DNA of 63,999 nucleotides, the filler included, from Candidatus Babelota bacterium (GTDB taxonomy: Bacteria > JAGOBX01): the NCBI GenBank assembly GCA_017999075.1. It is 11 parts of 11 records of this genome, joined end to end, with 100 filler letters (N's around TTAATTAATTAA, not from the genome) between each part and the next. Parts side by side here need not be neighbours in the genome. Positions count along the whole stretch, not along the records: positions 6,029 to 11,931 come from JAGOBX010000249.1; 10 more parts are not named here. The stretch is one strand, 5' to 3'. Made by a program: the position numbers and the translations under genes. This document shows positions 5,929 to 35,776 of the stretch, piece by piece. The notes under the pieces are model-generated. The model had not been told where the DNA came from, searched no databases, and saw nothing but the letters and a program-made list of their open reading frames with translations. Position 1 is the stretch's first letter. Each line of letters begins with the position of its first letter.

Positions 5929-6028
5929 NNNNNNNNNNNNNNNNNNNNNNNNNNNNNNNNNNNNNNNNNNNNTTAATTAATTAANNNNNNNNNNNNNNNN
6001 NNNNNNNNNNNNNNNNNNNNNNNNNNNN
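5929..6028. other. Artificial contig linker (44N-TTAATTAATTAA-44N)
   Basis: Identical linkers occur at 11932-12031, 17909-18008, 23877-23976, 29837-29936, 35789-35888, 41724-41823, 47645-47744, 53542-53641 and 59431-59530. The 12-mer gives stop codons in all six frames. Confidence 0.98.
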
Positions 6029-6085
6029 ATGAACTTCAATAGCTAATCCGATAATTATATCGCTCAATTCTTTTTCATAAATCAT
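6029..6085 (-). CDS. Second GxxExxY gene copy, 5' fragment only (runs off contig end)
   Basis: 6029-6167 matches 6799-6937 at 138 of 139 positions and encodes MIYEKELSDIIIGLAIEVH with the same AAGGA RBS. Confidence 0.8.
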
Positions 6086-6105
6086 TGTCAATTCCTTTTA
6101 AATTC

Positions 6106-6167
6106 TTGGTGTCTTCGGTGTCCTCGGTGGATAATATTTTTTCCACCGAAAAAGACGAATACACCGA
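6106..6167. repeat. 62-bp imperfect palindrome, copy A (9-bp-periodic TCGGTG/CACCGA arms)
   Basis: TTGGTGTCT TCGGTGTCC TCGGTGGA-taatattttt-TCCACCGA AAAAGACGA ATACACCGA. Perfect 8-bp core stem at 6124-6131/6142-6149. Confidence 0.9.
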
Positions 6168-6276
6168 ATAAATTCTATTCTGTTTTTTTTCTCTGCATTT
6201 TCTTCGTGTTAAAATTATTTTTTTTTTATCACAAAGAATAATACTTTTTATAATCATAAAAACGCAAAAATCATTT

Positions 6277-6303
6277 TCACGCAAAAGCGCGAAGGCAGCA
6301 AAG
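6277..6303. repeat. Degenerate 9-bp tandem repeat (TCACGCAAA AGCGCGAAG GCAGCAAAG)
   Basis: GC-rich three-unit array inside an otherwise very AT-rich spacer. Confidence 0.55.
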
Positions 6304-6382
6304 TTTAAAATAATAATTTTACTTTATTTAGCTTTAAAATTATAATTTTAAATTATCAATATTATAATTTGTCATAATCAGA

Positions 6383-6414
6383 AATTTTCAATTTTTAATT
6401 CTCAATTTTCAATT
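6383..6414. repeat. 7-bp tandem repeat (AATTTTC/AATTCTC), about 4.5 units
   Basis: aattttc aattttt aattctc aattttc aatt, adjacent to palindrome copy B. Confidence 0.7.
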
Positions 6415-6421
6415 GAATTTC

Positions 6422-6484
6422 TCGGTGTTTCTCGGTGTCCTCGGTGGACAATATTTTTTCCACCGAAAAAGACGAATGCACCGA
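6422..6484. repeat. Palindrome copy B, 2 bp downstream of the GxxExxY stop codon
   Basis: TCGGTGTTTC TCGGTGTCC TCGGTGGA-caatattttt-TCCACCGA AAAAGACGA ATGCACCGA. Same orientation as copies A and C. Confidence 0.9.
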
Positions 6485-6486
6485 AA

Positions 6487-6855
6487 TTATAGAACAATCC
6501 TTTTAAATTCTAATTTATTTCTTCCGAAATTTAATATATAATCAACTTTCACTTCGCTTGCTTTTAAATAATTTAATATTTGACTTATATGTTCGGAACA
6601 AATATTGTTTGTTGCTTTTAGTTCTAAAATTATTTTGTTATCAATTAAAAAATCAACATAATATTTTTTGTTAAGGATATGTGTTTTATATTTAATTAAT
6701 AATTCTTTTTGATTTTCAAATTTTATATTATTTTGTTCAAACTCAATAGCTAAAGCTTCTTCATAAACTGCTTCAAGAAATCCTATGCCTAAAGTTTTAT
6801 GAACTTCAATAGCTAATCCGATAATTATATCGCTCAATTCTTTTTCATAAATCAT
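6487..6855 (-). CDS. GxxExxY protein (PD-(D/E)XK nuclease-like)
   Basis: IIGLAIEVHKTLGIGFLEAVYEEAL (GxxExxY), D-FLI...IILELKA, QILNYLK and LNFG motifs. ATG at 6855 with AAGGA RBS; the ORF track starts at a TTG at 6861. Confidence 0.92.
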   Translation of the reverse strand: MIYEKELSDIIIGLAIEVHKTLGIGFLEAVYEEALAIEFEQNNIKFENQKELLIKYKTHILNKKYYVDFLIDNKIILELKATNNICSEHISQILNYLKASEVKVDYILNFGRNKLEFKRIVL

Positions 6856-6875
6856 TGTCAATTCCTTTTAAATTC

Positions 6876-6937
6876 TTGGTGTCTTCGGTGTCCTCGGTGG
6901 ATAATATTTTTTCCACCGAAAAAGATGAATACACCGA
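6876..6937. repeat. Palindrome copy C, abutting the gspE stop codon and preceding the GxxExxY RBS
   Basis: Identical to copy A except for one base (6926). Confidence 0.9.
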
Positions 6938-8377
6938 TTATTTTTCTCTGTGAATAACCCTTGCGAATTCAGAAACAGTCGTTATTCCATTTAATACTTT
7001 TTGTATCCCGTCTTCAAATAATGTTATCATCTGATTTTTTTCTATCGCATATTTTTTTATTTCCTGAATTGAAATGCCTTTTTTTACCATTGTATTTATA
7101 TTCAGATCAAATATTAGTATTTCAAATAATCCGCATCTGCCTTTATAACCTGTCCCGCTGCATTTATCACATCCGCGTCCCTGAAATAACACCGCATTTT
7201 CAAAACTGCGTTTCGCAAGCCGTTCAAGTGTCTTGATTTTTTGCGGCGCAGGTTCTTTACAATGTTCGCACATTTTTCTGACAAGCCGCTGAGAGATAAT
7301 TCCTCTCACAGTATCGGCAATCAGATACGGCGGCAAACCAATATCAACTAACCTCGATAAAGTGCTGACTGTGTCATTCGTATGAATAGTAGATAAAACA
7401 AGATGTCCGGTCAAAGCCGCCTGAATAGCGATTTCCGCTGTTTCAGAATCCCGTATCTCGCCTACCATAATTATATCCGGGTCCTGCCGCAAAAGACTTC
7501 GCAAACCATTGGCAAAAGACAGATTGCGTTTCCGGTTTATCTGCGTCTGATTAATTCCTGGAATTTCATATTCTACAGGATCTTCGATTGTAGCGATTTT
7601 TAATTCAGGACGTTTTATCTTTTGCAATACCGCATACAAAGTCGTGGTTTTTCCGCTTCCAGTAGGTCCCGCAGTCAAAACAACTCCGTGCGTAAATTCC
7701 AATAATTTTTCAAATGCAAGTAAATTGGTTCCCATTACTCCAAGCGAATCTATTGTTATTACCTGCTCGCTCTGGCTCAATAACCTCAAAACCACATTCT
7801 CTCCGTGCATTGTCGGAATAGTCGAAACCCTGATGTCAAATTCAACATTCTCAAGATTTATCTTAACCCTGCCGTCCTGCGGTTTCTGCTGTTCTGCAAT
7901 ATCAAGATTAGCAAATACCTTTATATGCGAAATAATATTTTTCTGTATCTCCTTAGCTATCGACGGCTGCTCAAACAGTATTCCATCAATCCTGTATCTT
8001 ATAATAACCTTTTCTTCAAACGGCTCAATATGTATATCGCTCGCATTTTTATTATAAGCGTTTATCAATATATTTTTTACGCTCGTATAAATGAAATTCT
8101 CTCCGTCCAGTTCCGATTCGCCGTTTCTGTAATTAAAATTTATTTCGGATTTATCGTTGTTTGAATAATTCCCGGTTAAAATATTATTTCCATTCTGCCA
8201 TTTCAAAAATCTCTCATTAAACTCGCTTTCGTCAATAATCTTGAAATCAACTGTTTTCCGATAGTATTTCTCCAGTATTTTCCTAAGATAATATGTTTCA
8301 TCAAGACCATATACGGTTAATGTTTTTGGAGTTTCGTCAGCGGGTATGAGATTATGATTTTTATAGAATGAGTTCAT
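6938..8377 (-). CDS. GspE/PulE/PilB-family secretion ATPase
   Basis: ASDIHIEP, PQDGR, Walker A GPTGSGKTTTLY, TIEDPVEY, LRQDPDIIMVGEIRD, TGHLVLSTIHTN, and CxxC pairs (CEHC, CDKC). Confidence 0.93.
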   Translation of the reverse strand: MNSFYKNHNLIPADETPKTLTVYGLDETYYLRKILEKYYRKTVDFKIIDESEFNERFLKWQNGNNILTGNYSNNDKSEINFNYRNGESELDGENFIYTSVKNILINAYNKNASDIHIEPFEEKVIIRYRIDGILFEQPSIAKEIQKNIISHIKVFANLDIAEQQKPQDGRVKINLENVEFDIRVSTIPTMHGENVVLRLLSQSEQVITIDSLGVMGTNLLAFEKLLEFTHGVVLTAGPTGSGKTTTLYAVLQKIKRPELKIATIEDPVEYEIPGINQTQINRKRNLSFANGLRSLLRQDPDIIMVGEIRDSETAEIAIQAALTGHLVLSTIHTNDTVSTLSRLVDIGLPPYLIADTVRGIISQRLVRKMCEHCKEPAPQKIKTLERLAKRSFENAVLFQGRGCDKCSGTGYKGRCGLFEILIFDLNINTMVKKGISIQEIKKYAIEKNQMITLFEDGIQKVLNGITTVSEFARVIHREK

Positions 8378-8379
8378 AG

Positions 8380-11300
8380 TTAATTCATTTTCCTTTCATA
8401 CATAAACATCAGCAGACCCAAATCTCTGCGTATATCGTCGATTTCAGCGCCTTCGAGTTTTTGGATGTCGCGTATGATACGGCCTAACCGTTCGATTTTG
8501 TAAAGTATCTGCGAGTTAGTGTTTTCAGGACGATTGCGCAGATATTGTAAATCATTTATTGCGCGATCGATTATGCGTAAATCCTGATATGACAAAACTT
8601 CAAAACTGCTGCCGCCTTCGAGCAGGTATATTTGTACCGGTAAAATATTATTTCCGGTTATCGTAATCAATGAACCGTTTGAAAGTCCTGTAAAATCCGC
8701 TATTCTGACGCGGTTGCGCCGGAATACCTGAACACGAGACGCTTCGCCTGAGTATTTCAAAGTGATTGATGTAAGTTCGCGCCAGCCCCAGCAGCGATTG
8801 TGATGCGGATGTTTGTATGTAAGCGCAATAATTTCGAATGCGCCGAATTTATCGCCGATTTTTAATTTTTTGCCATAAGTTTTGATGCGCGTTACATCAT
8901 CGAAATTAGGCAGATTTTCAAGATTTGAGATTATATAATCATAACTTGTAGCATAATCAAAATCTATTGATATTTCCGCTTTCAAATTATTAAAAGGAGG
9001 ATGAGTAAAATAATTTCCATGTAGCAGATATTCGAGTCTGCCTGATATTTCATACTCGCCTGCTGTTAAAGGCATATTCAATATTGCCCTGAATTCAGTT
9101 TCGGAATCCTTTGCAATTTGAGATTGAGTTATATATGAAATTTCATCGGCTGACAATGTTCCTCTGTCAAGTATCTGTTTGATTTCAAAACCTTCCGGCA
9201 GCATTTTAACGCCTAATAATTGTAGAGGCATTATTTTCGGCGACGCTGTTATTACGCTTAAAATTTCCGAACCGCTGAATGCGGCTGCGTTATCAGGTCT
9301 AATATAATCAATACTTCTGCGAATAAAATTTGAAATTATATTATATGTCGCGCTTTCCAGAACTGCAGACAAATCAAACGCGAAATAAACCGTTTTTCCT
9401 TCGCCGAATGAATTCATTAATATTACAGGCGATTGATTGCTGACAGGAGTTACATCAATAATTTTTATGTCTCCGTCAATTATATCTCCTGGCTCTACTG
9501 TGGAATGCGATGTTCCCGAAGTATTGATTGATTCGTCAAATATTTTATGGTTCGCAATATCATAAACCTTGATTTTGGTTGTTGAATTTAATACTTCGTC
9601 AGGAAGTTTGGTTCCGTCGATTGTAAAATCAAAAGGTCCGATGCCTTCTACTGAATCGAATATTGAAGCACCTGAACTTAATTCTATTCTTACAGTATCG
9701 CCGTTTGTATTAGGCAGGTATTTACAGTCAACAAACACTATTCCGCTTGGAGCCGGATTCAGTTCGCAAAAACCGCCCGCCTGCGCCGCGGTGTATGCGG
9801 ACAACTGAACCTTATACACTTCGCCTTGAACAGTCATACTTCCCGCTTCTGTAACAGGAGTAGATACAAGATTCATCAGCCTGTCGTTTTCGCTGCGCAT
9901 TTTATTATTGATTTTCGCGCCGTAAAAATCATATCCTTTCGAAGGTTGAGTATATGTATGATGGCGGTAACGCCATTTGCGCTGACGCAGACAATCTGCC
10001 GCTATATCCTTAAACATACTGCCGATAAATCCGCCGCCTGCGTAAATATGCTCGCGTATTTCGTCTTCCTCGTATTCTGAAAATCTATTGTGTTCGCCGA
10101 GTATCATCATCATATCATAACTGTTTGAACGCAATTTTTTTAAAAATTCGTCTTTGTCTTGTACAATTGCATACCCAGGTATTTTCAGTGAATTCATTAT
10201 ATTTGAGATCAAATCTTCCGGCACGATTTTATAACCGTTATCAACCTTCACTTTCAGATTATTTCCCTGTTTCTGATAATTAAGCCACACTAATAATTTT
10301 CCTGAACTTGTTATTGAAATATCTCCGGCCAATGCGTCTATCATTGTAAACTGTCTTGAATATTCAGGACTTAAGTTTCCAAGCATATCAACGGCTTTAT
10401 ATTGTAATGTTACAATACCGCTGTCTATATTTGAAATTGTAAACGGTAAATCGTATTCAAGATATTCTCCATCATTTATTTTATAATATATTTGATCAAT
10501 GCCTGCTCCGGTTCCGCTGTCTATGGCTGTAATTGTGAACCTGCTTTCTTTAATAATTTCTGTTTGCGAATCATTTGAATATTCGATTGACAAAAGAAGA
10601 AGAGGAACAGTTTTATCCACAATGATATTTACATTGTTCCAATCTTCAATGTTTTTTGAAATATCAATTGAACGGTATTTGAATGTATGTGCGCCAGTAC
10701 TCCATCCGCCAGTTCCCTTAACATTGCACTCAGTAGTCTGCACTGCAATTATTGTACTATCATCAATACTGTATTCTATCCCGAAGACTCCTGATAAAAC
10801 GTCCGTGCATTTTATTATGATTTGCGTTGAATCGTTGATAAATACAGGGTTTGTACCGTATTTCGGTTCGGAGATCAGAATTTCAGAAACAGATTTTGTA
10901 AGATCAATATTAATATTGTCCACCGAAGACACCGAGGTATTACCGGCTAAATCTGTAGCTATCCACTCTGCATTTTGCCCTTTGCCTTCAATCAGAATTC
11001 TATATTCTGAACTCTGCGTCATTCCACTTAAAGCATCACTCGCGCTGAATGCTACCTGAACATTTTGGTTAAACCAAATATTTTCTGACGGATAAACAAG
11101 TGCCCAATTTTCAGTATCTGTACTCTGTATTCTGCACTTTGAGCTAATTACAGGCGCAGTTTTATCAATATTAATTTTATCCACCGAAATCACCGAGGTA
11201 TTACCAGCTAAATCCTGCGCAATCCACGACGCTGACTGATTTGAACCCTCTGATGATAAAATAATTTCTTTAGTGTATTCCATCAGTCCTGATAGATCTG

Positions 11301-11931
11301 AAGCGGTAAATATAACTTTTATATTTCCATTAAACCAAATATTTTCCGCCGGCTGCGCTACAAACCATTCTCCGTCCTTTGCGCTCTGCGCTTTATACTC
11401 TGCAATGATTACAGGCGCAGTTTTGTCAATGTTTATGTTATCCACTGAGAACACCGAGGTATTTCCAGCTAAGTCTTGCGCTATCCACAACGCTGATTGA
11501 TTCGCGCCTTCATTTGCCAACATTATAACCTTCGAACTTTCCACCACTCCAGTTGCATCGCTTGCCGTAAACGTTACTCTTACGTCTTTATTAAACCAGG
11601 TATTTTCAGCAGGCTGAACTGCCTGCCAGTCTACATTCTCTGCGTCCTGTACGCTGCACTCTGCACTTATCGCTGGCTCAGTCTTATCTATCGTAAACGA
11701 TACGCTCTCGCTCGTCGTATTTCCCGCTAAATCAGTAGCTGTCAATATCGTTGTGTAATTTCCTTCGTTTATAAAAATCGTATCGCCTGATACTACGCAT
11801 TCCTCATTAACCGAATAACTTAAAATCACATCTTGATTAGTCGGCGTAACAACAGAAATAATCGTTAATACAGGCGCTGTCTTATCAATATTAATTTTAT
11901 CCACTGAGAACACCGAGGTATTTCCAGCTAA
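8380..11931 (-). CDS. Large extracellular protein with tandem Ig-like repeats and a C-terminal amidotransferase-like (Rossmann-type) region; 5' end cut by contig edge
   Basis: Repeated IDKTAP...WFN..V.V.F.ASD..G....EG.NQS..W.A.DLAGN units and OmpL47-like Y.IDD/Y.IND repeats. The frame is open to the contig edge. Confidence 0.8.
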   Translation of the reverse strand, partial: LAGNTSVFSVDKINIDKTAPVLTIISVVTPTNQDVILSYSVNEECVVSGDTIFINEGNYTTILTATDLAGNTTSESVSFTIDKTEPAISAECSVQDAENVDWQAVQPAENTWFNKDVRVTFTASDATGVVESSKVIMLANEGANQSALWIAQDLAGNTSVFSVDNINIDKTAPVIIAEYKAQSAKDGEWFVAQPAENIWFNGNIKVIFTASDLSGLMEYTKEIILSSEGSNQSASWIAQDLAGNTSVISVDKINIDKTAPVISSKCRIQSTDTENWALVYPSENIWFNQNVQVAFSASDALSGMTQSSEYRILIEGKGQNAEWIATDLAGNTSVSSVDNINIDLTKSVSEILISEPKYGTNPVFINDSTQIIIKCTDVLSGVFGIEYSIDDSTIIAVQTTECNVKGTGGWSTGAHTFKYRSIDISKNIEDWNNVNIIVDKTVPLLLLSIEYSNDSQTEIIKESRFTITAIDSGTGAGIDQIYYKINDGEYLEYDLPFTISNIDSGIVTLQYKAVDMLGNLSPEYSRQFTMIDALAGDISITSSGKLLVWLNYQKQGNNLKVKVDNGYKIVPEDLISNIMNSLKIPGYAIVQDKDEFLKKLRSNSYDMMMILGEHNRFSEYEEDEIREHIYAGGGFIGSMFKDIAADCLRQRKWRYRHHTYTQPSKGYDFYGAKINNKMRSENDRLMNLVSTPVTEAGSMTVQGEVYKVQLSAYTAAQAGGFCELNPAPSGIVFVDCKYLPNTNGDTVRIELSSGASIFDSVEGIGPFDFTIDGTKLPDEVLNSTTKIKVYDIANHKIFDESINTSGTSHSTVEPGDIIDGDIKIIDVTPVSNQSPVILMNSFGEGKTVYFAFDLSAVLESATYNIISNFIRRSIDYIRPDNAAAFSGSEILSVITASPKIMPLQLLGVKMLPEGFEIKQILDRGTLSADEISYITQSQIAKDSETEFRAILNMPLTAGEYEISGRLEYLLHGNYFTHPPFNNLKAEISIDFDYATSYDYIISNLENLPNFDDVTRIKTYGKKLKIGDKFGAFEIIALTYKHPHHNRCWGWRELTSITLKYSGEASRVQVFRRNRVRIADFTGLSNGSLITITGNNILPVQIYLLEGGSSFEVLSYQDLRIIDRAINDLQYLRNRPENTNSQILYKIERLGRIIRDIQKLEGAEIDDIRRDLGLLMFMYERKMN

Positions 11932-25223: not shown

Positions 25224-28200
25224 CTAATTATTTCCTGTTATCAGCCAGTTTAAACCATTTGAAATTATTTCAACATATTTCCATTGTGATGCTAAAGTAT
25301 AAGTTGGGTTCCCATCTATAGTTTGAGTACTGTAAGGATCTATTGTAACTGCGTTTAAAGTTCCTATATGTTTAATTTTATAAATTCTTCCTGTTATTGA
25401 AGCAGCATCAGGAAGATTTACTGTTATAGTATCTGAAGTAGGGTCACAAACAATAATATAATCTGTATCTCCTGCGCTGTACGAAATTGATGAAGTGGAT
25501 ACTAATCCTCCAGCCGCAAATGAACCGTTGTTATGTAATGTAGAATGAGGAGTATCTGTTCCTATTCCGACTTTTCCTGAATTGCGGGAAATATTTATGC
25601 CTGAAACAGCCCAGTCAGTATCAGAATTTGATATTCCGGTTAGTAAAGAACCATCTCCGATAAATTTAGATGCAGTAATTGTTCCAATTACTACCATGGT
25701 TCCTGAAGCTACAGTTGAATCAGCATCAATATATAAATATCCGTTACCTGAATTGTTAATGTATTCAAGAGTTGCTTTTTTTGTATTTACATTATCATAA
25801 AAACTAATCGAACTTCTCCCTGCCATATCAGTATTGCGCAATTTTATCATTTCATTGTCGCCTGCTATAGATTTTGTCAAACTGATAAAATTATTCTGTA
25901 AAGCCATAGTTCCGCCGATGACAATAGAATCAGCATTCAAATACAAATAACCATTTCCCATATTGTTTTTATATTCAATAGAAGCTTTCAAAACATCTAT
26001 ATTGTCATAAAAATTAATTGAGCTTCNNNNNNNNNNNNNNNNNNNNNNNNNNNNNNNNNNNNNNNNNNNNNNNNNNNNNNNNNNNNNNNNNNNNNNNNNN
26101 NNNNNNNNNNNNNNNNNNNNNNNNNNTATTGTTTTTATATTCAATAGAAGCTTTCAAAACATCTATATTGTCATAAAAATTAATTGAGCTTCTTCCAAGC
26201 ATATCGGTATTGCGCAATTTTATCATTTCATTATCACTTGACATAGATTTTGTAAAACTGAGGAAATTGTTCTGCAAAGCCATAGTGCCGCCGATGATAA
26301 TAGAATCAGCATTCAAATACAAATAACCATTTCCCATATTGTTTTTATATTCAATAGAAGCTTTCAAAACATCTATATTGTCATAAAAATTAATTGAACT
26401 TCTTCCAAGAATATCAGTATGTCTTAAACGTATCATTTCGTTATCGCTTGACATAGATTTTGTAAAACTGATAAAATTATTCTGAGAGCTTTGAATAGCC
26501 ATAGTGCCGTTTATAATGATAGAATCAGCATTTAAATATAAATAACCATTAAAGTTATCATATTCTATACTTGCTTTTTTAAAATTCAAGTTATCATAAA
26601 AATTAATAGCACTTTTACCGTTAAAATCAGTATTCTGCAGGCGTATCAGTTCTGTGTCATTTAACGAAGACTTAGTCAAATTTAGATGATTGTTAAGTAA
26701 TGCAACAGTTCCGCCGATAAGTATTGAATCAGCATTTAAATACAGATAACCATTGCCGTTATTGTTTATGTATTCAATACCTGCTTTTTTAAAATTCATG
26801 TTATCATAAAAATTAATAGCACTTTTTCCGCTAAAATCAGTATTCTGCAGGTGGATCAGTTCTGTGTCATTTAACGAAGACTTAGTCAAATTTAGATGAT
26901 TGTTAAGTAATGCAACAGTTCCGCCAATAAGTATTGAATCAGCATTTAAATACAGATAACCGTTACCATTATTGTTTAGATATTCAATACCTGCTTTTTT
27001 AAAATTCATGTTATCATAAAAATTGATCGCGCTTTTTCCGTTAAAATCAGTATTCTGCAGACGTATCATTTCAGTATCATCCCAGGAAGATTTTGATAGA
27101 ATAAGATTATTATTAATAAGTTCCATAGTTCCACCGATAACAATTGAATCCGCGTTTAAATACAAATAACCATTGCCGTTATTGTTTATGTATTCGATAC
27201 CTGCTTTTTTAAAACTCATATTATCATAAAAATTGATCGCGCTTTTTCCGTTAAAATCAGTATTTTGCAAACGGATCATTTCAGTATCATCCCATAAAGA
27301 TTTGGTTAAAGCAAGATGATTGTTTAATAATGTTAATGTGTTTCCTATAACCACAGAGTCAGCATTCAAATATAAAGCATTCCCTTGATTATAATAAGTT
27401 ATTGAAGATTTCAGTTGATCTATATGATTATAAAATCCGATTCCGCTTTGTCCGAAACTATATGAATTTTTAAGTTTTAAGTTTATTGTATCTGAAGATG
27501 AAGCAGTAGTTGATTTTATTGAACCTTCAACTGTAAGACTGTCTGCAAGAACGTTAGTTCCAATTCCGACTTTACCTGATAACCTGTAAATATCTTCTCC
27601 TGAAGTTGTCCAAGTTGAATCCCCTGAACCTGATATAGTTGCCCACGATACAAATCCACTTCCATTTGTCTGTAAAACTTGGTTAATTGATCCGTCTGAT
27701 GCAGGAAGCACATAATCCCCAATTTTTACAGAGCCGTTAATAGTTAAACTGTCTGTTGGAGATGAGTTGCCTATCCCAACATTTCCATCAGAAGATAATG
27801 TTAATACAGTATTAACGCCATTATTAAAATTTAATGAACCATTAGTATAATTCAAATAACTCGGACCGCTTTCGAGTTTAAACTCAATTTTATTTGAAGC
27901 TGTTCCTTTAATTTCTAATTGCGGAGAAATGGCGCCGTCTCCATAAATACTTAATAAACTTGAAGGAGCAGATGTTCCAACACCTATATTCCCAGACATT
28001 TTATAAATTGTATCTCCTGCTGCTATTGTCCAGTCTGTATCAGTTCCGTTTGCGGAAATTCCGGTTAATAAAGAACCGTCGCCGATGAATTTATTAGCTG
28101 AAACAGTATCGGTAAATGTCGCATCTCCTACTACGTGCAATATAGAAACAGGAGATGTTATTCCTATTCCTATTTTTTTACCTGAATCCTGTAAAATAAG

Positions 28201-29836
28201 ATTACCACCTGAAGTAATCAATAAAGATGAATCAATATTTGAATTACATATTAAACTGTTTACTTGATTATTTTGATTTACAAAACAAATGTTACTTGAA
28301 TTTGTCGCATCTGTATTTTGTATATCAAAATTAGTTACGCCTACAGTACGGTTTACAACTTTCATAGTTCCGGCGACAGTTAAATTGTTCGTCGGAGATG
28401 TTGTTCCTATTCCAACTTTAAGACCTTGATCTTGTAAAATAATATTGCCGCCTGATGCGATTAATAAAGATGAATCAATATTTGAATTTTCTATTATAGT
28501 ATTAATTGTTCCAGTATTACTATAAAACCATATTGAACTTTTGCCTGAAGCATTAGTGTTATGTAATTTTATTAATGGATTAACAGTGCCGTTATCTATA
28601 ACTTTAATACTTCCCTCATTTAATGTTAATTTATCTGATGGATTATTTAATCCTATTCCAACATTTCCTGAAAGTTTGTAAGAAGTATCCTGAGTTGCTT
28701 GCATCCAGCCACCAGTATCTACACTTATGCCTGTTAAAGCAGAACCGTCGCCGATGAATTTTGTTGCATAAACTGTATCAGCATGCAGAGCATTCGTTAA
28801 TGTCATTGTTTCGGCTTTTAAAGAACCATTTACATGTAACTTAAACTGAGGAGTAATTCCTATACCAATATTACCGGCATCTTGAATTGTAACTAATTGT
28901 CCAGTGTCAGACTGATTATTTATTGATAAACCGGCTGCAGGACCTCCTGAATATATAATGTGGTTCTGATTTCCAACATATAAAAATTTTTGAGTTCCGT
29001 TGTATGTATAAATATAATCATTGTTATTTGGAGCGATTACTGCACTTCCATTAACATATAATCTTTGTGTAGGATTAGCTGTTCCAATACCAGCATATCC
29101 GGTTTTTGTAACTATTAAATGAGTATCACTGATAATAAGAGAGTCAGATCTTATAGTTCCGGCAACCTGTAAACTATCTGTAGGAGATATGGTTCCTATT
29201 CCAACATTTCCATTTAATCGATACATATTTGTTCCTGATTCTGTCCATTTGGTATCATTGATTATTATACCAGTTAATAATGAACCATCACCTTGAAACG
29301 ATGTTGCTTTTACAGTTCCTGTCACATTCAAATTTGCTGTCATTGTATCTTCAATATTTTTTCTTACAAAATTTGCTGTTGAATCAGTTAAAAAACTGCT
29401 GTCGTTTATAAAAGCTGATAAATTCGTTGGTTTGCCGTTTATTTTCGACCAGTCCGCATATAGGGTATCAGCGGAAATAGAAAGATACCTTACATCAGCA
29501 GCGCTTGTATTCATCCCAATTTCAGATTTCAGAGCAAAAGTAGTAGTATCAAGTTCAGCAGGCGTTCCTGAAATTCTTATCCACGGAATACTGTCGCTTA
29601 TATTTGAAACAGTATGAATATGAGAAGTATCAGCTTTAGCAGCAAGAGCTGATGAATCAGCTTTTAATGCTAACATAGAAAGAACATAAGCAGTATCAGT
29701 TTTTAAAGTTAATTGAGCTATAACAAAAGATGAATCAGCCTTAGCAGCGAGCTGAATTGTAGTAGCGAATGTTGAAGAATCAGTAATGATTCCAGCAGGT
29801 TTATTTATAATTTTGGTCCAGTCAGCGTTCATAGTA
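25224..29836 (-). CDS. Very large fibre/adhesin-like repeat protein (GNVGIGT repeats + 70-aa tandem repeats). A single gene split by a 100-N scaffold gap; 5' partial
   Basis: Many G[NK][VI]GIG[TI] and F.GDGS.LTGI repeats. The gap flanks overlap exactly (25961-26026 = 26127-26192), and merging them joins the 1272-aa and 306-aa ORFs in frame. The C-terminus TVNLP...GRIYKIK...TIDG..TYTL...V..ISNG.NW resembles tail-fibre-like proteins. Confidence 0.8.
25700..27490 (-). repeat. Coding tandem repeat, about 210-bp period, at least 8 units
   Basis: The [LI][ND]ADS anchor recurs at 27361, 27151, 26941, 26731, 26527, 26308, 25932 and 25722. Adjacent units are nearly identical in DNA. Confidence 0.9.
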
Positions 29837-29936
29837 NNNNNNNNNNNNNNNNNNNNNNNNNNNNNNNNNNNNNNNNNNNNTTAATTAATTAANNNNNNNN
29901 NNNNNNNNNNNNNNNNNNNNNNNNNNNNNNNNNNNN

Positions 29937-32900
29937 GAATATAAACGCTGAATGTTTGAAATACTATTCAGCTTTTCAATGGTTGAATCATTGCTTGAAT
30001 TCAAATTAGTTCCTACCCATTTTTTCATCGTATTAATTATATTCATATCGTCGGCTGTCATTTCTATATTTCCTGCGCTTATTTCAGCATACACATTATC
30101 AGTCAGAAATGAGCCATACGCCTGCAAATAACTTGAAAACAGCGTTGACAAATCAAACTTCGGACTTTTCTGACAAACAAATTCAAAACCAAACGAATCG
30201 CCATAGATAACATTACCCGCTTCAATAAAAGATTTTAACGCTTCAGCATACTGATATGATTTCATAAATTCTTTGCCACTGTTAAAACTAACGGCAAAAC
30301 CTGCTATTTTTTCTTTCAGAAAATCATATTCTTCTTTCAAGATATCATAAACCGGATCATTATAAATAAAATTGTAATCCGAAAGAACAGCGATATTTTT
30401 TTCCATATCAGCGCATATAACCTCAAAAGGCAGCGTAAGATTTTTATCAGGATAATTGTATAGATTATCCGTAATTTGATTCCGATTTTTAATAAAACTT
30501 ATAATCGCAAGATAATACTTATTAGCCATTTCAGGTTTTGCAAAAATCTCGTTGTTTTTAATAAAAGATTCTAATTGCGGATAACTGAACTGTCCTGCAA
30601 AATTCGCGCATTTTTCAGCCGCTGATAAACCTGCCAGCCAGTCCCCATCTGATAACTCTGCTTTTACAAAATTAGCGGTAAAAGTATTATGCATAACGCT
30701 TATTTTATCGCGGTAATCGAAAAAATAAGAAATATGATCTTTTAAATTAACATCTGCTTTCAATAAATTTTTAATATTATCGTCCAGATTAATGGTTATA
30801 AGTTTTGAGTATGTCTGCGCTAATTCCCAATCCTTTTTTGACTGTCTGTATTCTGCGGCTAATGCGATAAGTTTATTTGCTGCGTTAATATCTTCAATCA
30901 CCGATTCGCGTAATGACTTGAATACCTGTCGGCTGTCAGGATAATTATTATTTAAAAAATCAAGATTCTGCAATGCTCTGGTTTTATCAAGATTCGCGAA
31001 ATTAAGCTGCGCCTGCTTTAAATTAACATAAAAGTCTATTACTTTTATTGCGGCATCAAGCTTGGCTTTTGCTTCATTCGCCAAAACTGCGCTTGTATAT
31101 GCGGGATAGGATTTTACGGATTCAGTCAGCCATTCCGCTATGTTTGATTTACTTTTAAAAAATTTCCAATTATTATTTATAATTGATTTCAACTGCTGAC
31201 CGCTGACAGCGCTGATTGCCGCATTATAATGATCTTTAACGATAGTATAAAAAAGCTCTGGATTACTGCTTGTTTCAATTTTATAAAGCAAGCTTTCCCC
31301 TTTTTCGATAATGTCTAAAAATAATAATGTCTGGAGCGCGCGCGGAATAATATTTTTTTCATAGCCAGTCAATTCAAGAAGCGCGGCAAGATTTTTTTCA
31401 ATTGCGTCTTTATCTTTTTTATCAAGCGCGGTTGTAAGTTCAGCTCTGACTGGCGCAACAGCTTTCTCGCATTGTTCTTCTGTCCATACAGCATTATCAT
31501 TAAGAGTCAAAAGCTGGTCTAATCCTGGACCAGTCCCAAGACCGCAATGTATTATATTTGCGTTGACATCATTTTTGGCGAGAATATAGCTTGCTCCGGC
31601 AAATTTGTTTTTAAACGCATAACTGCCAATATCAAAATACTCTGAACGCTTTGGAACTACAACATCATCGAATGAATGAGAATTTCCTGATGCGTCTGTC
31701 CCGCTTAATACTAAACCCAATTTACCTTTGCCAACTGTGAGTTTTTCGCTAAAAGTATTTATAGTTTGTAAAGAATAACCTTTTCTGAAGATATAATCGT
31801 CATTTCTGACAATAATCGTTTTTGCGCTCGGTTTACTCTGATTATTTCTTGCGTCAGCATTCATCGCATATCCGAGAATACTCCAGCCGGATGGCGCTAC
31901 AGGTTTCCATAATAGTTTAAGATTAGTCGAGCCGATTGTTTGACCTAAAATTTGTATTGATATATCAGCAGCAACCTCAGAATACTGGTCAGTATATCGA
32001 TATACAATTTTTCTGACAGGCGGTTTCTTTATCATTGATTCGCGTTTGGTATCCATCCATTTTATGACTTGTCCCTTTATTTCATTGACAGCAATATCTC
32101 TGTCTCTTCCTAACTTGATAAAATCTTCATCAGATAATTCATAAACAACCTCTTTCGTATTTGCGGGAATAAACCTTTTAACATCGCTACTGGTTATATC
32201 ATTAGTTAATTTAAAAATATCTCTGATAGCTATGTATTTCAATTCTTCCCACTTCTTAAAAACAGTATCATTCTTGAGTTTTTCAATACTTTCTTCAAAT
32301 TTTTTCGGATTAACACTTTTAGCAGCGTTAAATTCAGGTGATTCTAATGATTTAAGTGTTTTTTCATAATTTTTTTCAATAACACGCGCAGTTTTTTCAT
32401 AATTTTCTAGATAAGTCATCGCAAGTTTAAAAGCAGCGGCTGAAAATTTTTTATAAATTATTTTCGAAGCCATATCATAGCCATAAACTATCGGCGGAGT
32501 TTCTTTAGTTTTTTTACCGAAAAATTCGGCAACATCGTTTCCGAAATCAACAAAGGTTTCCGCTATCTCGCTGCCGCCTTGTTCAAAAAATTTACCTGCG
32601 TCTTTACCGAAACTTTCAAGACCTTTCGCAACTTCAACGGCCGCGATTTCAGCGTATTTAGATGTTTCGTTAAACGCGATAGTCGCGCCTTGCGCGATTA
32701 GTTTGCCCGTATTTTCAAGCACTTTCAAAATTACTTTATCAAGGTTCTTCAAAATTTTCTCAAATATCTGTTCGCAAATCGGTTTTATGAATTCAGCCGG
32801 ATTCAGCGATTTCACGCTGATATCAAAATCTTCCTCATAAATAGCAGATTTATATTTAACTTTCATTGAATATTTCGGCGGTGTTCCCTGTATCAACGAG

Positions 32901-35776
32901 CGGACATCGAATTTAGCGCGGATATTTGTTATCTCAAGCGACATTACAATATCGCCGATAAACTGTGTAATTTCTTTCGGGATTTTAACATTTTTTTCGA
33001 TAAGCTCTGCAATCCTGCTTTTTGTCACGCCGTCAGCCGCAAGGTCGATACGCGCTTCCATATCCTGACTGCTGTAAAGAAAATCGCATCTGACATTTCC
33101 GAGCAGTTCAGATTTCATATTGGTTTTTAATTCCATATACGAAAAATCAGGCGAGCCGCCAATATTGAAATCAGTAATAACTGTCAGCGGCAGATAAATA
33201 ATATTAGACGGCGGAATCACTATTATCGGATTTTCCCATCTCTCGCCTTCGCGCAAACCGCCTTTCAAACCTTTGTTAAGCAGGTCAATATTTATATAAC
33301 ATTTTACAGGTCCGCGCTGCGGGTCAATCGCGTAATCAAACGGCATACTAACCAATATCTTTTGCGCTTGATTCTGCGGTTCAAACCACATTTCAACATC
33401 AACATAATCTGACGGATATTTGATAGCGCTCAGATATTTCTCGTATAAATCGAAAAGCGGAATATTTTTTACGACATTTGGTATCTTCGCTTTAACATTG
33501 AATCTGCCTTTTGCCTTGTCAAGTCCGGCAGTAGCGTCAACAACTATATCCTTACCGCCATTCAAATATTTTACAGTAAGTTTGCCTTTGAATTCCGTTT
33601 TGGACGCGCGGATCATGTTGAGTTTTACCAATTCCAAATTAAAACCGAATTCAGCGCCTACATCAGGAAACTTCAGCCCTATTTTCCAGAAAAAAGATTC
33701 GAAAAATTTAAACGCAAGTTCCATTTCCAGCGAATTTAAAATAGCGTCTATATCAAGTTTAGGAACACCCAAATCAATTTTTATATCGCCCATTTCAGGA
33801 AATCCTTTGAATTTCAGAGGAATGATTAACCCGTTAAAACTGAAGCTGCCAAGTGACGGCATATTACAGTTCAGCGCAAGCTGACCAATCTCAAAATTAA
33901 GTTTCGGCATTCCTATTTTAGAAAACAAATCATTAATCCGCGCGAATAAACTATTGATATTTATTTCAGGGAAAGTCAGATTAATTTTAACATTCGGCGA
34001 AAAGTCCGGTAATTCCGGCATATCTAGTTTAATCAGTCCAAACCCGTCTGCGCGCACCTGAATATCAGTTTTATATTTTGAAGCTTTATTTGCTTTTGAA
34101 TCATAGATGAACGACAATAAAAATTTTTCAACGCTGCCCGGCAAAATACCGAACGGCTGCTGCCATTGCTGTTCCGGCGTAAGTCCGAACTGCACCGGAA
34201 TTTCATTTTGTCCTTCTAATATTTTTTTCAAATCAAGTTGCGCAAACAAATTAAGTTTGTTTTTTGTCGGGTCAATTTTAAGTTGAATCGGCGTTCTGAT
34301 AATCAGCGAATCATTGAGATTATCCTGTAATATTTTTTTTTCAGGAAACTGCGCGATAAAATCTGCAGATTGCGATATTGAACAAATATCATTATTTAAA
34401 ATGTCTTTTACAGCCGGAATATTAGAAAGCGGATTAGGAACTGACGCAGTAAATTCAAATAATTTATGCTGACTAATATTTTTTTTCACGCCTTTTACCG
34501 GAATAATTAAATCATTACCTGCATTTAAATATTTTAATGTTATTTCTCCGCTGAAATTATTTTCGTCTATTCTTGCAAATTTAAAAGATGCTGCGCCGAG
34601 ATTTATTATCGCTTCTGCGCCGAGATTAATATCATTAATCTGACTGTATATACAATCAACTACAAGATTAAGTTCGTTTAATAAATTTTTATCTAATTCT
34701 AAACCGGTGTTGTCAGAGCTGTCGTCACTTGAAGAACGAACGCCGCGTGCACGGCTGCGTGAATTTTTTTTGTTTGTAACTTTGCTTTTATCGACCATTT
34801 TTAATTTTTTTAGTTTTGAAGCGTTTGCGCGAGTTGATGAAGAAGAACGTTCCGCAGATTTTAATTTTGAACGTGATTTTAAGCCTCGCTGAGTATCTGT
34901 TTTGTCTTCTTCAATTTTTGAAGAATCAATTTTGTATTCTGCGTCAGAGATTGTTCCTTCATTAACATCTATTATTTTCTTTTCTCCAATCCTTAAAATA
35001 AGTATCGCTTTATATTGTTCGATTGAATCTTGATATTTGTTGAATTTTATTATTTCGTTTTTCGTCCAGTCAAACAAATACACATATCCATCCCCTCCAA
35101 CAAAATAATAATTATCCCCAGTCAATTCCGGCAATGGCAGAGTTTGCTGCGCTTCAGGTTCTGCAGTTTCGTCTTCATCAGCTGCTGTTTCTTTACCGCC
35201 AACTGATTTGATTTTTCGTTTTTCAGTTTTTCGAGTAGATGTTTGCGTCTTTGATTTTATCATACGATGTCTGCTTCTTATCCCGCGTTCTGAATCTTTA
35301 ATCTCCAATCTGTCATCTGTAATTCCCGAATTGTCAATTGTCAATTCTCCATTGACAATTTTTTTAATAGCAATAATATGTCCGTCCGGTCTGACGGCAA
35401 ACCAGTAATCATTTAATTTTAAAATATTTTCGGTCTTTTTTTCGATTGATTCACGGTTTAAATCAAGTTCATATACCGCGCCGTCTTCGATAAAATATTT
35501 TTTGGTTTTATCTAATTGCAGCGGTTTGACAGTAATAACTTTCGTTTCAATTTTTTGACCTTTATTTTCTGTCGCTGCAGATGTTGATGCTACAGAAGTA
35601 TCTTCAATATTTTCTTGAACTGCCGAATCAACGCTTTTTACGCCGCGCCTGCTTCTAACATCAGTTCTTGACTGCGAAACCTCGCGAGCTTCAAGTACTC
35701 CAGAAAATACAATCATCAAAATGATTGCCATAACCATCGCTAATCCATTTTGAAATTTTGCCTTCATAAAAATCAC
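29937..35776 (-). CDS. Giant (>1940 aa) secreted protein of unknown function, 3' end cut by contig edge
   Basis: Uninterrupted ORF with a signal peptide (..FSGVLEA), internal duplications and a helical C-terminal third. Confidence 0.85.

Follow-up and report, generated by a model that had tools for sequence, protein, structure and literature searches.

Several described genetic systems combine a small enzyme with repeats of its own. The available text of PMC11893778 describes the Ssn/NTS-SRM system, in which single-domain GIY-YIG nucleases (cd10448) are associated with their own inverted repeats, and the RAYT transposases have a comparable relationship to REP palindromes. GxxExxY proteins, the PDDEXK_3 family, are listed as being of unknown function in the accessible part of PMC3424549. 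A literature search with subscription papers and supplements outside its scope found no published description of flanking repeats or of a target for them, and the passages available from PMC10910872 and PMC3936711 are unrelated to the family. Here we describe a locus at positions 6029–6937 of a 63,999-nucleotide stretch of DNA (hereafter, the window) from Candidatus Babelota bacterium (GCA_017999075.1), in which GxxExxY genes alternate with imperfect palindromes. The unit that can be read from the sequence is a promoterless gene for a predicted PD-(D/E)XK nuclease of about 125 residues, bracketed by inverted arms, and the palindromes arise where two arms adjoin with an AT-rich loop between them. 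We consider it probable that the window element belongs to a widespread nuclease-plus-cognate-repeat element, the PD-(D/E)XK counterpart of Ssn/NTS and RAYT/REP. Such a family around GxxExxY is apparently unpublished.

The three palindromes of the window lie in the same orientation and at the positions given by the first-pass annotation of this DNA (Table 1). Each consists of two inverted arms of tandem RCNRA units (8–10 bp), three units per arm, with an AT loop between them. The annotation had described regular units at a 9-bp spacing; the inverted arms of repeated units stand, while the spacing is 9–10 bp and every copy has a degenerate middle unit in its stop-side arm. In the window the core pattern has no match besides these three palindromes, and none of 100 shuffles gave any match. 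Folding z-scores of the three palindromes as single-stranded DNA (ssDNA) are -4.9, -3.9 and -4.1. Across loci the unit consensus is RCNRA plus one base, and arms of the element family range from 2 to more than 10 tandem units of 8–10 bp. The fixed unit is the arm rather than the 62-bp palindrome proposed earlier. In 44 of 58 loci the outermost arms face inward, and only three loci show the outward orientation seen in the window. No Rfam family came near its gathering score for the element. The palindromes of the window do begin just behind stop codons, as had been noticed, and across loci the median distance is 9 bp from stop to arm and 24.5 bp from arm to ATG, with 49 of 58 loci nearer the stop. 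Insertion aimed at stop codons was nevertheless rejected as an explanation: the asymmetry is real, yet it is about the size of a ribosome-binding site, and the need to keep that site could explain it.

The arms keep company with GxxExxY genes, as the annotation had supposed, and do so well beyond this genome. A strict arm detector was applied to 164 full-length GxxExxY genes with 200-bp flanks (about 40 of the loci are from related Flavobacteriaceae) and to 80 control genes. Arms were found on both sides of 80 of the 164 GxxExxY genes versus 2 of the 80 controls, and any arm at 121 versus 17. This detector supersedes an earlier local-alignment test with a weak control, in which 25 of 125 control genes scored at least 30. 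On visual inspection, arms accompany all seven remaining GxxExxY loci of the source assembly (G000; 3.83 Mb in 594 contigs, fragmented and 87% complete), and each locus has a unit of its own. Noncoding DNA of the same assembly holds 83 triple arms versus 10–23 in shuffles, and 20 of 96 noncoding arm matches lie within 300 bp of a GxxExxY gene. A palindrome-first scan of metagenome contigs yielded six loci, four beside a GxxExxY gene, one solo and one apparently within a coding frame; three of the four proteins score 322–330 against the window protein, above all 103 others compared (best 310). Among 151 genomes of one phylum the gene is present in 21 of 25 palindrome-positive genomes versus 58 of 126 others (Fisher p 7e-4), a comparison in which a reversed-pattern control gave 9 of 14 and related genomes are not independent. 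A generic palindrome scan of 201 Desulfobacterota-group genomes was noisy, the control pattern matching about as often, and was excluded from the co-occurrence analysis. Overall, the gene occurs in 79 of the 151 genomes and in 13 of 41 genomes of a broad sample, with up to 11–16 matches per genome, of differing arm types and several of them broken. Palindromes also occur alone. Those of the window type are found on five contigs of G000 without a GxxExxY gene (C2, C70, C300, C364 and C480). Other genomes offer further cases: G273 (L242, L298–L304) has nine solo palindromes and only broken GxxExxY matches, and G002 has solo palindromes on C127, C124 and C46.

Arms and proteins vary together. The arm profile tracks protein distance (Mantel rho 0.26, null maximum 0.06, 99 rows), a correlation that co-inheritance alone would give. 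One pair of columns, residue 8 of the protein and base 4 of the unit, stands out with a z of 50, the next column reaching 6.6. Among 94 rows of less than 90% identity with at least three detected units, all 35 with Thr have G and all 23 with Val, Ala or Gly have A; Ser occurs with either base (10 G, 22 A). The rule persists when only downstream arms are used, for each of the four codons of Thr and where Thr is not followed by Glu, Asp or Gly (22/22). A hidden DNA unit within the codons thus does not explain it. On a tree built without the N-terminus, residue 8 and base 4 each change 17–18 times; among tree-independent pairs Thr occurs with G in about 13 of 17 and the contrary in none, the next best column scoring 7.4. 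A first tree, from a quick search and with many open forks, was used solely for the clustering of labels (11 changes versus 22.4 when shuffled). The rule was then scored on 60 fresh loci, all from one phylum and 13 of them with too few units to score. Thr was paired with G in 23 of 25 cases, Val or Ala with A in 7 of 7, and Ser with G in four and A in eight; for fresh loci below 80% identity to the earlier rows the first two counts are 20 of 22 and 6 of 6. For the other unit positions the comparison gave no column of this kind. In shape Thr and Val are alike, a hydroxyl in one taking the place of a methyl in the other, which would suit a reading of C versus T on the opposite strand. We infer, fairly strongly, that base 4 is read by residue 8, in helix 1, Thr being matched to G and Val or Ala to A. 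The covariation points to cognate recognition, in line with the earlier proposal that the repeat is the target of the protein, and direct recognition by the protein of its own repeats is judged quite likely on these sequence comparisons.

The protein encoded by gx1 is a GxxExxY member, as annotated (TIGR04256, 135 bits, cut-off 35; PF13366, 130 bits, cut-off 22; GxxExxY motif present). Its predicted catalytic residues D68, E78, K80, Q92 and Y96 are intact, and D, E, K, Q and Y are kept in 221–227 of 228 family rows. The AlphaFold model (pLDDT 94) has a PD-(D/E)XK fold, nearest to Cas4 SSO0001 (Z 8.0, rmsd 3.1, 98 aligned; Foldseek E 2e-4) and to lambda-type exonucleases. Since a Z of 8 is near the 'common' level of the tool, the evidence lies in fold and motifs together: by its modelled fold and its D...ExK and QxxxY residues the protein falls within the PD-(D/E)XK superfamily, and nuclease activity is predicted. 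Cas4 and lambda exonuclease act on single strands or ends. A relationship to T7 endonuclease I or a cruciform resolvase was considered on weak PDB sequence hits (E 0.27–0.9) and a Pfam E of 0.0085; it is absent among the fold-search matches listed and was kept as a lead only. The GIY-YIG motif occurs in 0 of 228 family rows and an HUH-like triplet in 2 of 228, and the window protein has no PF01797 match. The expectation that the whole window protein would group with relatives having ACCGA arms failed, which is explained by mosaicism. In segments chosen by eye, residues 1–27 rank four ACCGA-arm relatives 1–4 of 167 and residues 99–122 rank the same four 1, 2, 6 and 7, whereas residues 28–60 rank them 45–150. 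Residue 105 of gx1, counted from the ATG (6535–6543), is Asp versus Gly in the family; all four public runs have the Gly allele at 6542, so the base in the window could represent a minor allele, or else be erroneous.

The window strings together separate contigs with N linkers between them (for example 5929–6028; one every ~5.9 kb, with a fixed 12-base core), so adjacency across linkers is meaningless. Position 6029 is base 1 of contig C390, and hence only 19 codons of gx2 lie inside the window. The order site-gene-site-spacer-site-gene described by the first-pass annotation is seen, with the amendment that the second gene is cut at the contig end and a fourth palindrome, D, lies on another contig, C83. 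The terminus of C83 carries a 97.9% copy of the 3' part of the GxxExxY gene (three differences in 222 coding bases), then palindrome D and a secretin (GspD-like) gene. The two 139-bp blocks at 6029–6167 and 6799–6937 are identical except at 6156/6926, as had been reported. Palindrome C resembles A, B resembles D, and homology ends within 3 bases of the outer palindrome edges, which indicates that the copied block was site-gene-site and not a gene with one site. Between gspE and the secretin gene the whole palindrome-gene-palindrome block (~520 bp) occurs as two copies separated by 254 bp, and gspE-C-gx1-B-spacer-A-gx2-D-gspD is the likeliest full layout. Misassembly, which had been named as a possible source of the duplicate, fits poorly with the public contig sets (X1–X3, one study), of which X1 may derive from the sample behind the present assembly. 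One X1 unitig covers 6133–6461 (the centre of A, the spacer and B), one X2 contig covers 6236–6960 (spacer, B, gx1, C and gspE), and the C83 flank appears in public contigs at 6429, as a loose end. In X1 the gene is collapsed into one unitig, whose depth is 15.2 versus 4.5–10 for the flank and spacer unitigs. Depth, spanning contigs and the C83 copy fit two real copies; no record among the public contigs bridges gx2 to C83, so a mixture of strains is a less likely alternative. The spacer could represent the original intergenic region, a copy having inserted at each of its ends, and a tandem duplication followed by deletion is a possible alternative origin. It contains 7-bp tandem repeats (6383–6414) and decayed arms of another unit type (6281–6302 and about 6192–6237).

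Gene and arms very probably travel together, to judge from comparisons of related genomes. At four sites, L021/C430, L030/C68, C372/L187 and C137/L192+L193, the element is present in G000 or G001 and absent from a relative. None of five empty alleles holds an arm, not even two units, although an empty orthologous site with a single palindrome had been anticipated. The flanks of the empty alleles are about 70–79% identical, so a palindrome could have come and gone, and the junctions are too diverged to map. Elements 76–78% alike occur in unrelated flanks of the two sister genomes G000 and G001; in the case of C372 and G001:C101, DNA homology runs from arm to arm and the flanks are unrelated. 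No orthologue of C276 was available for an empty-allele comparison, and the flanks of L015, L026, L181, L182 and L183 had no syntenic match in G000. At the Flavobacterium rfbB-rfbA junction 16 of 30 loci are readable: nine are filled, one has a 6-bp gap, one a 20-bp scar legible as arm ends fused together, and five have other repeat relics. The first unit overlaps the last codons of rfbB in eight of the nine filled junctions. Of the claim that this is a self-propagating cassette, the movement of gene and arms as a unit and the existence of empty orthologous sites thus stand, and the supposed composition of one gene plus one site gives way, in the window, to a copied block with two sites.

Arrays with toxin-antitoxin-like passenger genes exist. 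The L211 array between gmd and the next gene has five L-cargo-R units: an empty one, GxxExxY, a DUF4258 gene with a small partner, another empty one, and junk. Among 77 L...R brackets 58 hold GxxExxY, and the other 19 are empty or contain toxin-antitoxin-like pairs or host genes such as hsdS. Further arrangements of arms were seen in passing. DUF2281-like/PIN and ParE toxin-antitoxin-like genes lie inside arm brackets at L210 (1665–2281) and L012 (501–809), and G228:C32 (27330–30526) has three GxxExxY genes in 3.2 kb followed by more such pairs. In G000:C233 (5084–8662; L179) eight arms of the same type stand at successive junctions of a type I restriction-modification locus, with hsdS bracketed L...R, and in C589 and L214 GxxExxY also follows hsd-like genes. 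G000:C482 shows a second tandem GxxExxY duplication and G000:C480 an array of palindromes, 237 bp long and without a gene; N gaps run through both, which may in part be artefacts of assembly. CRISPR-like arrays of a palindrome and a near-identical spacer, with a period of about 122 or 217 bp, occur at L182 (G001:C37), L189 (G001:C6) and L030, two unit types alternating in L189. Tandem repeats of 7 bp share gene junctions with GxxExxY arms in the window (6383–6414), at Flavobacterium L151, L157, L158 and L167, and in G000:C480. They may mark a parallel cassette family, whose genes we take to be four-helix-bundle genes. Short repeat-like sequences flank one broken TIGR02436 gene of G000 (L190).

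A mechanism can be outlined from these comparisons. They show gene and arms entering jointly where AT-rich DNA separates co-directional genes and reaching adjacent gaps from there; scars and palindromes without a gene are left behind, and passenger genes are sometimes bracketed. Fairly strong inference has the protein binding the units sequence-specifically. On weaker grounds, several protomers would load on the tandem units and the nuclease would nick or cut beside the arms; host repair might then copy, move or delete what lies between them, and insertions would survive where the upstream stop codon and the downstream ribosome-binding site are spared. We lean towards the nuclease as the driver of movement, with cutting and mobilisation predicted from sequence. 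A bolder version, in which GxxExxY is a mobilising enzyme class of its own, is tentative and rather doubtful: a ~125-residue Cas4-like nuclease with a residue-base code would let host repair alone copy and move arm-flanked DNA, its integrase-free arrays would capture toxin-antitoxin pairs, and the catalytic core would be swapped between differently addressed elements.

A number of results weigh against this reading. The strict detector found zero arms at 43 of the 164 GxxExxY genes. A generic palindrome-first survey had a gene within 300 bp at just 1 of 30 sites, so solo sites are common, and G002 (86% complete) and G366 have palindromes, but no GxxExxY gene was found in either genome. The family is rare among plasmids (8 of 72,556 records) and viral contigs (five loci). 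The residue-base rule is a partial one, with Ser ambiguous (10 G, 22 A), Gly reversed on the fresh loci (G in 3 of 3, versus A in the training set) and no more than three independent pairs on strongly supported branches; residue 8 is also encoded ~30 bp from the upstream arm, so that linkage contributes. No target-site duplication is visible on inspection of the window copies. For the gspE site no syntenic locus and no empty allele was found in G001–G003, the best relative having 46–52% protein identity, and no circular or excised joint was found among assembled public contigs, the sole data type searched.

Among the alternatives, the most serious would be a domesticated Ssn-like system. Here the nuclease would recognise the repeats, perhaps as single-stranded hairpins, and cut incoming or exposed DNA, with duplications and losses due to host recombination between repeats rather than self-mobilisation. 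The layout is the same as NTS-ssnA-NTS, which modulates transformation according to the available text of PMC11893778. Sites without the gene are more numerous than those linked to it, plasmids and phages seldom carry the family, and the nearest folds, Cas4 and lambda exonuclease, have single-strand or end activity. This explanation is nonetheless unlikely, given the multiple and partly broken copies with different arm types in one genome, the same-clade elements in unrelated flanks of sister species, and a window duplication that ends at the outer palindrome edges and not inside the repeats. The arms could also be ends or operators for another enzyme acting in trans, a transposase or recombinase, with GxxExxY as the commonest passenger or a self-regulating binder. 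The 19 of 77 brackets without GxxExxY would suit such an arrangement. It is improbable in view of nearly invariant catalytic residues and of a protein-arm covariation that needs the protein to touch the arms. Moreover, 0 of 12 Y1 transposase loci in G000–G003 are bracketed by arms, and none of four genomes, among them G000 (87% complete), has an integron integrase above the TIGR02249 cut-off.

The negative integrase search bears equally on the integron-like model of the first-pass annotation, in which the palindrome is a pre-existing attC-like site and circles of a gene plus one site recombine into it. Site-gene-site arrays with passengers, as in L211, the window-type solo palindromes on five contigs, and the direct-repeat forms of arms (score at least 30 in 20 of 98 loci) would be expected under it. 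The core boxes of attC are RYYYAAC and GTTRRRY, and neither was found on either strand around the three window sites. Furthermore, the empty alleles lack an arm, the internal sites of the window are not hybrids of the outer ones, and inward single arms dominate. Pairing of the arms gives no sign of a selected strand: sense-strand mismatches between arms across the gene number 65 G.T and 66 A.C. Taken together, these observations make an integron-like origin quite improbable. The same counts speak to a fourth possibility, an RNA element resembling the intervening sequences (IVSs) of 23S rRNA, in which the arms pair in the transcript and RNase III removes or insulates the gene. The available part of PMC4990558 documents RNase III excision of IVSs, the arms could pair, and in 106 of 124 loci the gene runs in the direction of both its neighbours, compared with 914 of 1266 genes in G000. 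No sense-strand excess of the G.U type is seen across the gene, in local hairpins (G.T versus A.C, 40 to 33) or in Flavobacteriaceae (30 to 58). Linker middles agree between arms in 43 of 87 cases and at least as well among the units within a single arm (30 of 51; 31% across loci), both polarities of the palindrome occur, no Rfam family fits, and the element lies between protein genes, not in rRNA. We regard an IVS-like element as very improbable. The absence of strand bias, the linkers and the two polarities together speak for binding sites in repeated array more than for selection of a stem in RNA or in a single strand; cruciform or hairpin substrates are possible.

Table 1. Features of the GxxExxY locus, in positions of the window
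Feature	Position	Strand	Remarks
gspE, GspE/PilB-family secretion ATPase, host gene upstream of the insertion	6938..8377	-	TIGR02533 523 bits, below equivalog cut-off
Palindrome C (R arm, AT loop, L arm)	6876..6937	-	begins directly past the gspE stop (6938-6940)
Probable ribosome-binding site of gx1	6863..6868	-	from sequence; putative function
gx1, GxxExxY/PDDEXK_3 gene	6487..6855	-	122 aa from ATG (124 from TTG 6861)
Codon of gx1 residue 8	6832..6834	-	Ser, the ambiguous state; column covarying with arm-unit base 4
Palindrome B	6422..6484	-	2 bp past the gx1 stop (6487-6489); same subtype as palindrome D of C83
AT-rich spacer, 254 bp	6168..6421	.	single-copy in the assembly
Palindrome A	6106..6167	-	differs from C at one base
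gx2, 5' end, 19 codons	6029..6085	-	cut by contig end; 3' part, palindrome D and secretin gene on C83

Three other features of the window are large coding regions. A 1177-residue repeat surface protein (OmpL47-type beta-barrel/Ig-like; 8380–11913) is encoded directly upstream of gspE and is cut by the contig end. An open reading frame (ORF) of 1963 codons without a Pfam match occupies 29885–35776, and one of 1272 codons at 26014–29832 contains a 210-bp tandem repeat at 26561–27290.

GxxExxY is a very common orphan family, which now has a predicted substrate beside each gene and a single-residue swap that is predicted to change specificity; its function is therefore directly testable. If the proposed reading is true, the family would be the third enzyme class, after HUH (RAYT) and GIY-YIG (Ssn), to combine a nuclease with repeats of its own. 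A class of palindromes scattered through the genomes of uncultured bacteria, and the variable spacers of their operons, would then be accounted for, and very small nucleases would become available whose sequence addresses differ naturally. The element is not unique to the window, whose copy carries the ambiguous Ser state.

Compared with known systems, the element resembles integron cassettes and CALIN/SALIN elements in its promoterless co-oriented genes, in the palindromic sites between them and in the toxin-antitoxin-like passengers of one array. It differs from them in the missing integrase and attC cores and in a copied block with two sites. Recombination at attC is described as selective for the bottom strand in the available text of 10.1101/2022.09.11.507474, a selectivity of which GxxExxY arms show no sign. 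With insertion sequences (IS) and miniature inverted-repeat elements (MITE) it shares the L-gene-R layout, gene-less derivatives, abutted ends and empty sites without ends. Unlike these, it has no DDE, HUH, serine or tyrosine enzyme, its protein is only ~125 residues long, no target-site duplication was seen at the window copies and arm length varies freely. Ends with repeated binding sites are also carried by Tn7 and Mu. The analogy with REP/REPIN-RAYT drawn by the first-pass annotation fits: the accessible parts of PMC3116915 and PMC5581495 describe extragenic palindromes in doublets and clusters beside the gene of the cognate enzyme, and GxxExxY arms likewise form clustered extragenic inverted doublets with hairpin folding. 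REP ends can supply the stop codon of a neighbour, as far as the available text of PMC3733652 goes, and the filled Flavobacterium junctions are the parallel here. RAYT is an HUH tyrosine transposase, typically single-copy and vertically inherited in these sources, whereas GxxExxY is of another enzyme class, has many matches per genome and a patchy location, with tens of repeats in G000. The closest likeness is to Ssn/NTS, in which inverted repeats likewise surround the gene of a small, single-domain nuclease to which they belong, with repeats dispersed without that gene between other genes, and homologues paired with their own repeat variants. NTS is directional, and the GxxExxY arms show no strand bias, as judged indirectly from mismatches. 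In place of the GIY-YIG domain the GxxExxY element has a predicted PD-(D/E)XK fold, its arms are arrays of 8–10 bp units in either polarity, and one genome may hold several differently addressed copies.

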